NCBI GenBank assembly: GCA_047602405.1
Contig: JASGHJ010000001.1
Location: 2,144,001 to 2,208,000, forward strand
Length of the DNA: 64,000 nucleotides
Source of the DNA: Anaeromyxobacteraceae bacterium
GTDB lineage: Bacteria > Myxococcota > Myxococcia > Myxococcales > Anaeromyxobacteraceae
Reading direction: 5' to 3'
A program made the position numbers and the translations under genes. The stretch's first letter is position 1, and the number at the start of each line of letters is the position of its first letter. Under the pieces are notes generated by a model that had not been told where the DNA came from, did not search any database, and saw only the letters and a program-made list of their open reading frames with translations. Positions 19,804 through 27,323 of the stretch are shown here, piece by piece.

Positions 19804-22542
<2,739 letters not shown>

Positions 22543-22547
22543 CGCCC

Positions 22548-22823
22548 GTGGCGACGATCCGCGTGCACCTCGTCGTCTCCGGCCGCGTGCAGGGCGTGTA
22601 CTACCGGCAGTCGACCGCCGACGAGGCCCGCCGGCTCGGCGTCGCGGGCTGGGTGCGGAACCTGCCCGACGGCCGGGTGGAGGCCGAGGCGGAGGGCGAG
22701 CGCGCCGCGGTCGACGCGCTCGTCGCCTGGTGCCGGAGGGGCCCGCCGGCCGCACACGTGGACGAGGTCGAGGTCACCCCGGTCGCCGCGAGCGGGGCGG
22801 CGGGGTTCTCGGTCAGGAGGTAG
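22548..22823 (+). CDS. acyP: acylphosphatase
   Basis: [32 protein letters not shown]. Confidence 0.95.
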
Positions 22824-22837
22824 GGAGGGGACGGGGG

Positions 22838-22921
22838 CGGAGACGGAGGCGGAGGCGGAATCGGAGACGGATTCGGAGACGGATTCGGAGACGGATTCGG
22901 AGGCGGATTCGGAGTCGGACT
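22838..22921. repeat. 12-bp tandem repeat (CGGAGACGGATT consensus) x7
   Basis: Three exact units at 22862-22897, flanked by four degenerate units. Confidence 0.9.
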
Positions 22922-22936
22922 GCTCGTGATCCCCGC

Positions 22937-23160
22937 CGGGGGAGAGGGACTCGGAGTGAATGGGCCCGACGGCGGGTGAGGGGGCCGTCACCCGTCTGAA
23001 GTGGCCGTCACCGGCCTCCTTCCGGCTGTGGGCTGCGTCTGCTTTGGACGGCGCACGTTTCCTGCCGGGCCACCGCTCGCGTTCGCTCGGTCCCGGGGCC
23101 CGTCATGAAACCTGCGCCGGAAGGGGGCAGACGCAGCCCACAGCCGAAAGGAGCCTTCCG
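22937..23160 (+). ncRNA. conserved structured leader, copy 1 (rod-like hairpin 23013-23155 covering the RBS)
   Basis: Homologous to the reverse complement of 23945-24169; 27-bp outer stem (23016-23042 with 23127-23153, one mismatch) plus an inner stem. An RNA function is inferred. Confidence 0.6.
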
Positions 23161-23511
23161 ATGTCTTCCATCCCCTCCACCTTCGTCGCGTACGACGTCG
23201 CGCTCACCGTCATCGCCTCTCTCCGCGACCTTCGCGGCGCGCTCGCGCGGCGGGACGCGTCGCTCGCCGATCAGCTCTCCCGCGCGGCGTCGTCCATCCC
23301 GCTCAACCTCGCGGAGGGCAACCGCCGCGTGGGCAAGGATCGCCTTCACTCGTTCCGCATCGCCGCCGGCAGCGCGGACGAGGTCCGGGCGGCGCTCCAC
23401 GTGGCGCTCGCGTGGGGCTACGTCTCCTCCGCCGACGCGGAGCCTGCCCTCCGCGCCTGCGATCGCCTCCTCGGCATGCTCTGGCGCCTCACGGCGCCGC
23501 GGGCGGCGTAG
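23161..23511 (+). CDS. four helix bundle protein (23S rRNA IVP/Avd-like family), copy 1
   Basis: LADQLSRAASSIPLNLAEG, F.IA.GSA.EV, GY, L..L motifs; AAAGGAG RBS. Confidence 0.9.
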   Translation: MSSIPSTFVAYDVALTVIASLRDLRGALARRDASLADQLSRAASSIPLNLAEGNRRVGKDRLHSFRIAAGSADEVRAALHVALAWGYVSSADAEPALRACDRLLGMLWRLTAPRAA

Positions 23512-23518
23512 GCGCCTC

Positions 23519-23547
23519 CCGGGCGGGGCCGGCGTGGCCCCGCCCGG
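23519..23547. terminator. GC hairpin between the convergent four-helix-bundle genes
   Basis: CCGGGCGGGGCC-ggcgt-GGCCCCGCCCGG; no U-tract. Confidence 0.5.
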
Positions 23548-23554
23548 CGACGCA

Positions 23555-23944
23555 TCACCGCGTCAGCCCGCGGAGCAGCCGCTGCACGCGATCCGCGGGC
23601 GCGAGCGCCGGCTGCACGGCCTCGCGGGCCAGGTACCCGAGCGCTTCTGCGACGTCGAGGCACGCCTGGACCTCGGCGGCCGACCCGAGCGCGACGCGGA
23701 AGAGGTGCGGGCGGTCCTTCCCGACGCGGCGGTTGCCCTCGGCGACGTTCAGCGGAACGGAGGTGACCGCACGGCGGAGCTGGTCTGCGAGCGAGGGATC
23801 GTGGCGGGCGACGAGCGGGATGACGGAACGCACGGCTCTCGCGAGCTGGATGGCGACCGCGTAGGCGTGGAAGGTGGGGGTGGGGGAGGTGGTACGGGGG
23901 CTGGGGGAGGCGGTACGGGGGGTGGGGAAGGTGGGGGAAGACAT
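23555..23944 (-). CDS. four helix bundle protein, copy 2
   Basis: LADQLRRAVTSVPLNVAEGNRRVGKDR, FRVALGSAAEV; 56/104 identical to the copy 1 core by manual alignment. Confidence 0.9.
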   Translation of the reverse strand: MSSPTFPTPRTASPSPRTTSPTPTFHAYAVAIQLARAVRSVIPLVARHDPSLADQLRRAVTSVPLNVAEGNRRVGKDRPHLFRVALGSAAEVQACLDVAEALGYLAREAVQPALAPADRVQRLLRGLTR

Positions 23945-24169
23945 TGGGAAGGTTCCTTTCGGTTGTGGGCTGCGTCTGCCCCATCCCCGGCGCAGGTTTC
24001 ATGACGGGCCTCCGGCCCGAGTGACGGCGAGCGGAGGCCCGGCAGGAAACGTGCGTCGTCCCAAGCAGACGCAGCCCACAGCCGAAAGGAGGCCAGTGAC
24101 GGCCCCCTCGCCCGATTGACGGTCCCCTCCCCCACCGGCGGGCCATTCACTCCAAGTCCCTATCCCCCG
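23945..24169 (-). ncRNA. conserved structured leader, copy 2
   Basis: 26-bp outer stem (23954-23979 with 24065-24090, one mismatch), same inner stem and upstream motifs as copy 1. Confidence 0.6.
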
Positions 24170-24210
24170 ATATGGGCCCGACAGGGAGAGGGTTCACCTA
24201 CAGTCCAGGT

Positions 24211-24480
24211 CCCGACTCCCGACTCCCGGTCCCCGTCCCGTTCCGGTCCCGGTCCCGATTCCCGGTCCCGACTCCCGGTCCCGACTCCCGGTCCCGACTC
24301 CCGGTCCCGACTCCCGGTCCCGACTCCCGGTCCCGACTCCCGGTCCCGACTCCCGGTCCCGACTCCCGGTCCCGACTCCCGGTCCCGACTCCCGGTCCCG
24401 ACTCCCGGTCCCGACTCCCGGTCCCGACTCCCGGTCCCGACTCCCGGTCCCGTTCCGGCCCCGATCCCCGGCCCCGATTC
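24211..24480. repeat. 13-bp tandem repeat (CCCGACTCCCGGT), 14 perfect units plus degenerate flanks
   Basis: Perfect units span 24267-24448. Confidence 0.95.
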
Positions 24481-24635
24481 CCAATCCCCCGCCGCGCTCC
24501 CAGGTCCCGCCTCCCGGTCCCGCCCCTCCCCCGCCCGCCCCCTCGCCCGGCATTTGCCCCTCCCTCTCCGGCCGTGGTACGCCACCCCCCTTCACACGGG
24601 TAGACACGCGGCTCCAACCCGCGGCCCGGCACGCC

Positions 24636-27323
24636 ATGCGCCTCCCTTCCGCTCGAGAACTGTCCGCGCTCGACGAGCTCGTGCTCGCTGCGCAGAAGCC
24701 CTCCCGTTACGTCGGCCTGGAGTTCGGGGCCGTGAAGAAGGACCTCGCGGACGCGCGCCTGCGCTTCGCGCTCGCCTTCCCCGACACGTACGAGGTCGGG
24801 ATGTCGAACCTCGGGTTCCGGCTCCTCTACCACCTGCTCAACGATCGCCCCGAGATCGCCTGCGAGCGGGTGTTCATGCCCTGGCCCGACCTCGAGGGGA
24901 TGCTGAAGGAGCGGAACCTCCGGCTCTTCAGCCTCGAGTCGCGCGCGCCGGTGAAGGGCTTCGACGTCCTCGGCCTGACCTTGCAGACCGAGCTCGCCTA
25001 CACGAGCGCGCTCGCGCTCCTCGATCTCGCCGGGATCCCGCTCCTCGCGCGGGAGCGCGGCGAGGACGATCCCATCGTGCTCGGCGGCGGCCCCTGCGCC
25101 TACAACCCCGAGCCGGTCGCCGACTTCTTCGACGCCTTCGCGGTCGGGGAGGGCGAGGAGGTCGCGCTCGAGATTGCCGACGTGGTGTCGTCGTCCGGCT
25201 TCCGGCGCGGGGGCAGCGGCGCCTCGCGCGCCGAGGTGCTCGAGCGGCTCGCGAAGGTGCCGGGTGTGTACGTGCCCGCGTTCTTCCGGCCGGTGTACGA
25301 CCCCACCACGAAGGTGCTCACCGCGATCGAGCCGCTCCGCCCCGGCTACGACAAGGTCGAGCGGCGGGTGATGCCGGACCTGAACGCGCTCCCGACCACC
25401 GCGTACACCCGGCCCATCGTGCCGTTCATGCAGACGATCCACGATCGCCTGCCCATCGAGATCCAGCGCGGCTGCACGCGCGGCTGCCGCTTCTGCCAGG
25501 TCGGGATGATCACCCGCCCGACCCGCCAGCGCGATCCGAAGGAGGTGCTGCGCCTCGCCGAGGTGGGGCTGAAGTCCTCCGGCTACGAGGAGGTCGGCCT
25601 CCTCTCGCTCTCCTCCGGTGACTACCAGCCGCTCAACGGGCTGCTCGACGACTTCCTCGCCCGCTGGGAGGGCGAGAAGATCGCGATGAGCCTGCCGTCG
25701 CTCCGCACCGAGACGATGAGCGACTCGCTCGCGAAGAAGATCGGCCGCATCCGCAAGACCGGCTTCACGCTCGCGCCGGAGGCGGCCACCGAGCGGATGC
25801 GCGCCGTCATCAACAAGGGGAACCGCGAGGAGGACCTCCTCAAGGCGGTCGCCTCGGTGTTCGGCAACGGCTGGTCGCTCCTCAAGCTCTACTTCATGAT
25901 CGGGCTCCCCGAGGAGCGCGACGAGGACGTCGTCGCCATCGCCGAGCTGGCGCGGAAGTGCCTGGCCGAGGCGCGCCGCGCCTTGCCGAAGGGGCAGGGC
26001 TCCGCCGCGATCCACCTCGGCGCGTCCACCTTCGTGCCGAAGCCGTTCACCCCGTTCCAGTGGGAGCCCACGCTGCGGCCGGAGGAGACCCGCCGGCGCC
26101 AGGGGCTCATCACCGCCGCGCTCGGGGGCCGCAACGGCGCCATCTCGTTCAAGCCGCACGACTCGCGCCAGTCCTCCATCGAGGCCGCGCTCGCGCTCGG
26201 AGACCGCCGGGTCGGCACCGCCGTGCTCGCCGCCTACCGCGCGGGCCAGCGGCTCGACGGCTGGACCGAGTGGTTCGACGAGCGGCGCTGGATCGACGCG
26301 TTCGCCGCGTGCGAGCGCGAGCACGGCGTCGGGCTCGACGGGTTCGCCCACCGCCGCCGCCGGCTCGACGAGGTCCTGCCCTGGGACCGCATCGACTGCG
26401 GCGTGACCAAGAAGTACCTCGCGAAGGGGCTCGCGGCCGCGCGCAACATGGCGGAGCTCACCGACTGCGTCATCGCCCCGTGCTCGGTCTGCGGCGCGTG
26501 CGACTACGACGTCGTGAAGAACCGGACCTACGACGCGAAGGACTACGTGCCGGAACCGGAGCTGCCGCCGCGCCCGCCGCCGCCCGAGATCCGCACCCAC
26601 GTCCGCCTCCGCTACACGAAGCTCGGCCGGCTCGTCGCGCTCAGCCACCTCGAGACCATCCACACCCTCGTGCGGGCCATCCGCCGGGCCGGGCTGCCGG
26701 TCGCGTTCTCGCAGGGCTACCACCCGAAGCCGAAGGTCAGCTTCGGGCCCGCACTGCCCGTCGGGGTCGAGTCGGTCTGCGAGTACCTCGACCTCGAGCT
26801 CGTCGGCCTCGCCGACGCCCGGGACGTGGGCGACCGCCTCGGCCGGGAGCTGCCGGAGGGACTCCGGGTGCTCGAGGCCTCGGAGGTCGACCCCCGGGAG
26901 CCGTCGGTGAACGAGGCCCAGCGGGCGGTCCACTACCGGGTCGAATTCCCGGCTGATATCGCGGAGGACCGCCTCCGGGGGCAGGTCGAGGCCTTCCTCG
27001 CGGCCGAGCGAGCGGTCGTGACCCGCGAGAAGCCCCCCCAGGGGCCCCGGGCCCGGCGCGATAAGGTCGCGGCCGCCCCGGTGAAGAGGATAGACTTGAA
27101 GGAAATCGTGACCCACCTGGCCGTCGAAGGCCCGGGGGTGGTCGCGTTCAGCTTGCGGGCGGATCCCTCGGGAAGCGCGAAGCCAGCCGAGGTGCTGGCA
27201 GCGATCTTCGGCGACGGGTCCACCCCACGGGGAGTGAAGGTTCTGAAGGAAGGCGTCAGCTTCGCGAGGACGGGAACCGGCCGCTCGGGCCAGCCCCGCG
27301 CCCCTCGCTACCTCGACGCCTGA
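24636..27323 (+). CDS. TIGR03960-type radical SAM protein fused to a TIGR03936/DUF2344 domain
   Basis: QKPSRYVG.E, FPDTYEVGMS, RGCTRGCRFC; C-terminal LSHLE...FSQGYHPKPKVSFGPALPVG. Confidence 0.92.
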   Translation: MRLPSARELSALDELVLAAQKPSRYVGLEFGAVKKDLADARLRFALAFPDTYEVGMSNLGFRLLYHLLNDRPEIACERVFMPWPDLEGMLKERNLRLFSLESRAPVKGFDVLGLTLQTELAYTSALALLDLAGIPLLARERGEDDPIVLGGGPCAYNPEPVADFFDAFAVGEGEEVALEIADVVSSSGFRRGGSGASRAEVLERLAKVPGVYVPAFFRPVYDPTTKVLTAIEPLRPGYDKVERRVMPDLNALPTTAYTRPIVPFMQTIHDRLPIEIQRGCTRGCRFCQVGMITRPTRQRDPKEVLRLAEVGLKSSGYEEVGLLSLSSGDYQPLNGLLDDFLARWEGEKIAMSLPSLRTETMSDSLAKKIGRIRKTGFTLAPEAATERMRAVINKGNREEDLLKAVASVFGNGWSLLKLYFMIGLPEERDEDVVAIAELARKCLAEARRALPKGQGSAAIHLGASTFVPKPFTPFQWEPTLRPEETRRRQGLITAALGGRNGAISFKPHDSRQSSIEAALALGDRRVGTAVLAAYRAGQRLDGWTEWFDERRWIDAFAACEREHGVGLDGFAHRRRRLDEVLPWDRIDCGVTKKYLAKGLAAARNMAELTDCVIAPCSVCGACDYDVVKNRTYDAKDYVPEPELPPRPPPPEIRTHVRLRYTKLGRLVALSHLETIHTLVRAIRRAGLPVAFSQGYHPKPKVSFGPALPVGVESVCEYLDLELVGLADARDVGDRLGRELPEGLRVLEASEVDPREPSVNEAQRAVHYRVEFPADIAEDRLRGQVEAFLAAERAVVTREKPPQGPRARRDKVAAAPVKRIDLKEIVTHLAVEGPGVVAFSLRADPSGSAKPAEVLAAIFGDGSTPRGVKVLKEGVSFARTGTGRSGQPRAPRYLDA

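Follow-up and report, generated by a model that had tools for sequence, protein, structure and literature searches.

A 64,000-nt stretch of DNA from an Anaeromyxobacteraceae bacterium (GenBank assembly GCA_047602405.1, contig JASGHJ010000001.1, positions 2,144,001 to 2,208,000 of the forward strand; hereafter the window) carries a cassette of two genes for Avd-like four-helix-bundle proteins between acyP and a TIGR03960 radical S-adenosylmethionine (SAM) gene. This is a real, selected, multicopy and transposase-less cassette of a kind that we have not found in print; literature searches, which took in neither supplements nor most subscription papers, returned no published description of it. 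The hairpin that precedes each gene and the gene itself very probably constitute one selected unit that changes site. More tentatively, and with a little less than even confidence, we propose that each hairpin may be a split sigma54 promoter, which would be complete only on the folded single-stranded template strand. Every part of the locus described in an earlier note, made from the letters of the window alone, is present: two modules face each other tail-to-tail, in the order G-rich array, leader, 116-aa gene, 11-bp hairpin, 129-aa gene on the opposite strand, second leader and second array (Table 1).

Four copies of the entire two-gene cassette are present in this Anaeromyxobacter-like genome (G000; relatives' genomes are designated G005, G010, G051 and so on, and fetched loci by L numbers), at unrelated chromosomal sites that all lie between protein-coding genes and with different arrays each time; the cassette is a repeated unit, not a local duplication. 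A ninth, lone four-helix-bundle gene without a hairpin is located between inverted hexamer arrays (G000:C1:1972306-1973204), and the same site is occupied in G010. The acyP/radical SAM junction is empty in all four loci that hold both genes, namely those of G010 (whose radical SAM protein is 96% identical to that of this genome), G015, G023 and G022; G009 lies outside this comparison, acyP being absent from its fetched locus. Thus, orthologous loci do not always carry the cassette. No target duplication is visible between the filled and the empty acyP junctions, and one DNA sequencing run yielded only short matching pieces, most of them less than 95% alike, with no bearing on excision. Two of the four sites are also filled in G010, which has cassettes at three further sites, and the 69 fetched loci fall into 57 site groups. 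Because the type-1 gene cores are 96–98% identical across the four sites of this genome, yet 83% and 80% identical to the G010 copies at the two orthologous sites, the copies appear to have been homogenised inside the genome, by conversion or replacement; the flank of one site common to G010 aligns at 96%. In G010, one cassette (L038 and L042) joins regions that are 2.1 Mb apart in G000, which suggests a rearrangement between two cassette copies.

The leaders are better conserved than the genes that they precede, as had been estimated by eye (85–90% over the hairpin): identity between the two modules is 87% over ~225 nt of leader and 89.9% over the hairpin, compared with 68.5% for the gene cores as DNA, and the two proteins share 57 of 105 aligned residues (56 of 104 in the first count). 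On the other hand, the ~225-nt leader does not stand as one unit. It consists of a gene-tied hairpin of ~138 nt and a separate outer piece of ~80 nt, an independent repeat resembling repetitive extragenic palindromes (REPs), of which partial gene-less copies are present at three other sites in this genome and which is swapped or absent in other cassette copies. Shuffling (200 shuffles each) gives folding z scores of -7.0 and -5.9 for the two leaders, and a scan of positions 22700-24700 against Rfam gave no match near the gathering score. In the alignment of 24 leaders, from which two E3 rows were excluded, 96.4% of cells are paired and 13 of 38 pairs show two-sided change; given a hand-drawn structure and related sequences, this figure is not a probability. 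Further pair types number 19, compared with 23.9 in shuffles, so that two-sided change is limited to a few kinds.

Scored on the top candidates of each genome only, a covariance model matches the hairpin in 8 of 37 genomes of the genus and in 2 of 150 genomes from elsewhere in the phylum, and all four matches in the two genomes outside the genus precede the gene. With a strict pattern, 17 of 18 distinct sites in a collection of species genomes are followed by the gene or its remnant; of 12 sites in metagenomes, 10 are so followed, one lies at a contig end and one is gene-less. The hairpin is therefore neither confined to this locus nor widespread without the gene, and together with the variable sites this agrees with the proposal of the earlier note that leader and open reading frame (ORF) form a selected, multicopy unit. 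Gene-less hairpin cores lie at L140:2289-2400 and L182:898-968; past the 3′ end of the former, its last ~19 nt recur as stuttered copies.

Both ORFs belong to the PF05635/TIGR02436 fold family, as first recognized, since they pass both profile cut-offs (PF05635, 61.3 and 68 bits against 33.8; TIGR02436, 62.6 and 67.6 against 24). The model of the type-1 protein (predicted local distance difference test score, 94.9) has a four-helix fold with 2RLD and 2GSC as top structure matches, and resembles BT_0352, Xcc0516 and, more weakly, Avd (template modelling (TM) scores, 0.77–0.82; Avd, 0.77). The sequence also matches 2GSC at an E value of 4e-6, and identity to Avd is 11%. By these likenesses, the protein is likely to be a pentamer like Xcc0516 and Avd. 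Proteins of this family are widespread and their structures have been solved, but to our knowledge none has a function outside the diversity-generating retroelements (DGRs) in which the relative Avd is known.

The imperfections of the hairpin bear on the strand on which it may form. Non-Watson–Crick cells on the sense strand comprise 15 C.A/A.C and 4 G.U (G.T), some of these cells being constrained by the ribosome-binding site, and the fixed sense-strand mismatches C.C (24/24), C.U (24/24) and C.A (21/24) are G.G, A.G and G.T on the other strand. With DNA energies, the antisense (template) strand folds better in all 24 class I leaders and in 47 of 54 class II leaders; even with RNA energies, it is still better in 16 of 24 (full) or 21 of 24 (core). 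The types of mismatch and the better antisense fold favor a structure on the template strand, and the excess of C.A over G.U, together with the DNA folds of class I, speaks against the non-coding RNA–protein system that had been envisaged.

The sequence of the arms suggests what such a structure may do. The 5′ arm, read on the bottom strand, contains an outward-facing word that matches 8–10 of the 11 positions of the sigma54 consensus (TGGCACG-N4-TTGC) in all 26 leaders, two of which come from other families, against a background of 2,414 such words in 12.3 million positions of this genome; the 3′ arm contains a gene-facing word with GT at -25/-24. A dyad of the two words, by a pattern derived from the sequences that it counts and among copies that are related, is found in 74 of 118 gene rows from the fetched loci (not the set of 118 PF05635 hits in the genus), with GT on the gene-facing arm in 63 and GG in 11; its loop is between a few and about 85 nt long. 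All four spacer columns of the word vary and covary, and positions -25/-24 and -14/-12 of the outward word are nearly invariant. In all 26 template-strand folds, positions -7 to -4 are unpaired, and the predicted +1, placed by spacing, is position 23127, with which the outer 3′ arm begins. This genome encodes sigma54, and by a strict pattern it contains seven words with GG and none with GT at -24, although these numbers are small. At the lone ninth gene, a site resembling that of integration host factor (IHF) precedes a plain GG-N10-GC word, and the layout of repeat pair, IHF-like site and GG-N10-G was found at this gene alone (one motif tried).

If each hairpin is a split promoter, the gene would be silent in duplex DNA, where the gene-facing word with GT at -25/-24 would be defective, and also in read-through transcripts from host genes, in which the ribosome-binding site would be paired in the stem. 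Once the template strand has folded, the other arm would supply GG on the non-template side and the region from -7 to about -1 would form a bubble; transcripts that begin within the 3′ arm would have their ribosome-binding site free. With one gene per strand, expression would be possible whichever strand is exposed. The protein may then bind nucleic acid and help the cassette to persist or copy, and spread appears to borrow host functions, with recombination among copies and the IS1182 transposase of two relatives. This explanation is weakest on the role of the protein and on the source of new insertions in this genome. Frpo hairpins reconstitute promoters on single-stranded DNA (ssDNA) (PMC9849209), and destruction of the fork junction near -12 allows sigma54 to bypass its activator in vitro (PMC4551910).

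Several observations weigh against a split promoter. Sigma54 normally requires an activator (PMC7057263), and no enhancer was identified in the hairpin leaders with the one motif tried, other enhancers not having been searched for. Most sense-strand folds (21–25 of 26) have the bubble as well, and the 11 dyads with GG on the gene-facing arm indicate that the split is not universal. In class II, one subtype has an outward word that is one base short, and position -24 is paired in 12 of 42 distinct words. Moreover, because the ribosome-binding site and ATG of class II are contained in a second, separate hairpin, with the ATG 79–106 nt past -12, the transcript of the gene itself would still be occluded. 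In many relatives within the phylum, the ribosome-binding site is covered by a hairpin that lacks the dyad; two of these have the class I outer stem alone. Plasmid, phage and viral collections, where single-stranded stages are expected, gave no match, although the phylum is probably thinly sampled there. In addition, the relatedness of the copies and the way in which the dyad pattern and the hand-drawn structure were obtained detract from the counts given above, and the word matches hold for the consensus in the form quoted.

The arrangement of the genes is a further constraint. PF05635 is present in 24 of the 37 genomes of the genus, where 82 of 118 hits make 41 pairs (gap up to 600 nt) in 13 genomes, all of them convergent. 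In other genera of the phylum, 24 of 100 hits (a set that excludes rows of G000, G005 and G010) make 12 pairs, of which 10 are divergent and two convergent. None of these 53 pairs is on the same strand, although the pairs are copies of few ancestors and do not amount to 53 independent trials. In a quick tree, built on 104 columns with support from the Shimodaira–Hasegawa-like approximate likelihood-ratio test (SH-aLRT) only, all 37 pairs with both members placed join two different subtypes, and pairs arose in at least three separate lineages (G000/G010, G009 and a class II group). A promoter that is complete only on ssDNA would account for the absence of same-strand pairs.

Table 1. Parts of the cassette in the window, and related insertion sequence elements of a relative (L coordinates refer to fetched loci)
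Feature	Position	Strand	Remarks
Left G-rich tandem array	22838..22919	+	12-nt unit x6.8 (6/12-nt period); begins right after the acyP stop codon
Outer REP-like repeat, module 1	22937..23010	+	GGGGAGAGGG...GGGTGAGGG type; not cassette-specific
Hairpin leader 1	23016..23153	+	27-bp outer stem, 23016-23042 with 23127-23153; Shine-Dalgarno sequence at the end of the 3′ arm
Outward-facing sigma54-like word, leader 1	23052..23067	-	GG-N10-GC intact
Gene-facing sigma54-like word, leader 1	23101..23116	+	GT replaces GG at -25/-24
Four-helix-bundle gene type 1, 116 aa	23161..23511	+	PF05635/TIGR02436
11-bp GC-rich hairpin between both stop codons	23520..23546		Retained in all four copies; likely a shared terminator
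Four-helix-bundle gene type 2, 129 aa	23555..23944	-	In-frame 21-nt repeat in the N-terminal extension (23876-23934)
Hairpin leader 2	23954..24091	-	89.9% identical to leader 1
Gene-facing sigma54-like word, leader 2	24006-23991	-	GT
Outward-facing sigma54-like word, leader 2	24040-24055	+	GG
Outer REP-like repeat, module 2	24092..24170	-	
Right tandem array	24203..24482	-	13-nt unit x20.8; G-rich on the minus strand, which points into the cassette
IS1182 element of G051 with hairpin and gene cargo	L116:591-2945		
IS1182 element of G051 with hairpin and gene cargo	L116:5000-7354		
IS1182 element of G051 with hairpin and gene cargo	L117:616-2975		

The hairpin could instead act as RNA, hiding the ribosome-binding site in read-through transcripts until RNase III cleaves it open or the protein itself binds, either for autoregulation or in an Avd-like RNA–protein particle. 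We regard this as unlikely, although it has points in its favor: no other feature is as widespread as the pairing of the ribosome-binding site, which occurs both with and without the dyad; the 27-bp stem is like the 28-bp, RNase III-cut stem of the 23S rRNA intervening sequence (IVS) that encodes the PF05635 family (PMC4990558); and the fold matches the Avd chains of the DGR ribonucleoprotein. Such a role is at odds with the sense-strand mismatches and with the better antisense fold under RNA energies, and it leaves the sigma54 spacing and the opposite-strand rule unexplained. Alternatively, the words may be ordinary duplex sigma54 sites, with a weak gene-facing variant and an outward word that serves antisense or neighbor transcription or a roadblock, the repeat having arisen by duplication and insulating translation only. 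The retention of T at -24 in 63 of 74 dyads, without drift, makes this doubtful, as do the seven GG and no GT words of the strict pattern, small as these numbers are, and the spacer covariation, which points to selection on pairing that duplex promoters do not need. Consistent with duplex sites are the 11 dyads with GG on the gene-facing arm, the outward word that faces a divergent IS1182 transposase in G051 and G005, and the ability of sigma54 to repress promoters (PMC4551910).

Other explanations look to enzymes acting in trans. The hairpin might be an ssDNA end or origin for a nuclease of the HUH (histidine–hydrophobic residue–histidine) type, as REPs are for REP-associated tyrosine transposases (RAYTs) and the related TIRYTs (terminal inverted repeat-associated tyrosine transposases), and its likeness to sigma54 sites vestigial. 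Fixed mismatches, an invariant stem sequence, gene-less cores at two sites, the folding bias to the template strand, and six Y1-type HUH hits and 182 REP-like repeats in this genome would all fit. Nevertheless, this is quite improbable, because PF01797 was not found in G022 (99% complete, five pairs) and was found in the gene-less G015 and G007 (most hits being weak), the hairpin lies away from the insertion boundary and is absent from the six HUH flanks inspected, and GTAG is not enriched at array junctions. Very unlikely is the notion that all copies are decayed passengers of IS1182. It draws on G051 and G005. Three nearly identical IS1182 elements of 2,355 bp in G051, each with terminal inverted repeats and flanked by CTAG, enclose this hairpin together with one gene, and their transposase is divergent from the outward arm of the hairpin; in G005, the ends of the insertion sequence (IS) are related to those of G051. 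However, the transposase is present in just 4 of 37 genomes and was not found in G000, G009 or G010; the IS end motif has only four matches in G000, away from the cassettes; the remnant IS1182 ends that would be predicted around the pairs were not found in the flanks inspected; and the IS-borne genes nest within class I in the quick tree. Thus, IS1182 is one vehicle, not the rule, since its transposase is found in so few genomes and not here. A non-autonomous retroelement that uses a reverse transcriptase (RT) in trans, as Avd does in DGRs, would suit the fold similar to Avd and the finding that PF05635 is the commonest Pfam family near DGRs (PMC10053308), but it is extremely unlikely, as PF00078 was not found in the pair-rich genomes G022, G008 and G017 (98–99% complete, two to five pairs each). 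The RT hits here, seven with identical scores and 484-aa frames and one broken copy, are far from the cassettes; the one read closely looks group II intron-type, and the set is likely to represent a recently spread group II intron. Hence, the RT link suggested in the earlier note finds no counterpart in these genomes, and neither RTs nor Y1 transposases (searched as PF01797, most hits being weak) track the gene. A search for an enhancer shared with the HUH transposase genes, in which a single motif was tried, matched the lone gene only.

Some features of these mobile elements may be recorded here. Four related Y1-type HUH transposase genes are located at G000:C2:2524469, C1:2221901, C2:3257262 and C2:3137187, three of them nearly identical and with common ends. 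Two IS1182 copies of G051, in inverted orientation, flank a ~2-kb stretch of lower GC content, like a composite transposon. A short upstream ORF that seemed to be coupled to the IS1182 transposase in G051 has no matching start in G005.

The array unit changes from one cassette copy to another. Arrays do lie outside the inverted repeats, as described earlier, but they are not mere outside bounds: at two of the three sites that are empty here and filled in G010, just a short inverted hexamer array persists, and the third site holds none. Gene-less inverted hexamer arrays in G000, which may be scars or target sites, lie at C2:199550-199808, C2:235949-236200, C2:1411494-1411848, C2:3741308-3741779 and C2:287409-287483, of which at least the last holds a cassette in G010. 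The REP-like repeat CCYGAGCGYAG-stem-GAGWCGARGG is present in 182 copies in G000, which often adjoin G-rich arrays and lie in tandem clusters. An array and an outer REP-like piece also lie upstream of a 611-aa ORF at L037:2422-4257 (-), which has an HNH-like C-terminus by eye and is preceded by what we take to be an SOS-box-like word. A preference for GTAG at array junctions was not upheld (9/23 against 1,044/4,125, P = 0.15; TAG, P = 0.08).

Host genes next to the arrays show a local bias. In genes ending at a G-rich array, the frequency of G at fourfold sites of the last 40 codons is 0.67 (n = 14), compared with 0.52 (n = 3,727; P = 6e-4), on rough gene calls. At an older shared site, the last 80 codons of a response regulator have G:C counts of 21:6 (G000) and 23:3 (G010), compared with 11:20, 15:12, 11:17 and 11:17 in four genomes in which the site is empty, and selA at this site shows the same trend to G. 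Relative to empty-site orthologues, G-skewed synonymous codons extend over the last 80–180 codons at G000:C1:314760-316251 and in the gene ending near C1:317710. No clear halo surrounds the recent insertion in this window: in the last 100 nt on the acyP side, 10 changes are purine-ward and eight pyrimidine-ward, and the other side has six and one. It is tempting to speculate that the cassette is a chromosomal selfish element that senses ssDNA, in which the split sigma54 hairpin would switch on an Avd-like pentamer upon unwinding, transfer or damage, opposite-strand pairs would cover both strands, and the protein would drive cassette copying, growth of telomere-like G-rich arrays that point at the cassette and a G-biased substitution halo in neighboring host genes. 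The hairpin would then be a sigma54-type ssDNA promoter of which our searches gave no other example; as a whole, we consider this picture improbable.

Among known systems, the cassette would work most like Frpo if the split promoter holds. The Frpo/ssi (single-strand initiation) promoters of F, ColIb-P9 and pESBL likewise have a long imperfect inverted repeat before the gene, with a predicted promoter rebuilt on folding (PMC9849209, PMC12672017), and the cassette has a stable template-strand hairpin upstream of the gene as they do. As described in these sources, they carry -35/-10 boxes in plasmid leading regions, whereas the predicted promoter of the cassette has words of the -24/-12 type. 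In addition, the cassette exists as several chromosomal copies, its hairpins serve genes on both strands, and the ribosome-binding site is part of the pairing; the cassette lies at chromosomal junctions without a plasmid match, not in the leading region of a conjugative element. The 23S rRNA IVSs that encode S23p likewise contain PF05635, a long stem by the ribosome-binding site and short tandem repeats near the start codon (PMC4990558). By contrast, the cassette is outside an rRNA gene, and no rRNA match was found there; its ORFs follow the hairpin instead of lying in a stem loop, the genes are two, and the sites are intergenic, by protein genes. Avd of DGRs and the stand-alone pentamer Xcc0516 (PDB 4DWL, 2GSC and 2RLD) have the same four-helix fold; unlike those of DGRs, the genes of the cassette have no adjacent RT, and no template/variable repeats differing at adenines are present among the repeats of positions 22000-25500.

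By their usual definitions, miniature inverted-repeat transposable elements (MITEs), mobile insertion cassettes and passenger-bearing ISs are, like the cassette, non-autonomous, multicopy and bounded by inverted sequences. In G051 and G005, moreover, the unit is a passenger of an IS1182. Unlike MITEs and ISs, the cassette pair lacks a target duplication and fixed terminal repeats; instead, hypervariable arrays form its ends and directly adjoin host genes. REPs with RAYTs or TIRYTs are hairpins with fixed mismatches, mostly downstream of genes, and REP-like repeats adjoin many cassette copies (PMC3733652); compared with REPs as described there, the hairpin of the cassette is much longer, belongs to one gene family, and has neither a GTAG/CGTC tag nor a linked tyrosine transposase. 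Taken together, the cassette lacks defining features of IVSs, DGRs, MITEs, REP/RAYT systems and, in this genome, IS1182.

The cassette ties one branch of PF05635/TIGR02436 to a defined, covarying cis element for which predictions can be made at the level of single bases, namely a +1 at 23127, the effect of T or G at -24, and strand dependence. It also offers a lead on the origin of short tandem arrays and of local codon skew. If the split promoter is real, ssDNA promoters would be extended from sigma70 cases on plasmids to sigma54 and to chromosomal elements; if the cassette is in fact a selfish element that senses ssDNA, the orphan PF05635 family and the tandem arrays would have a common cause.

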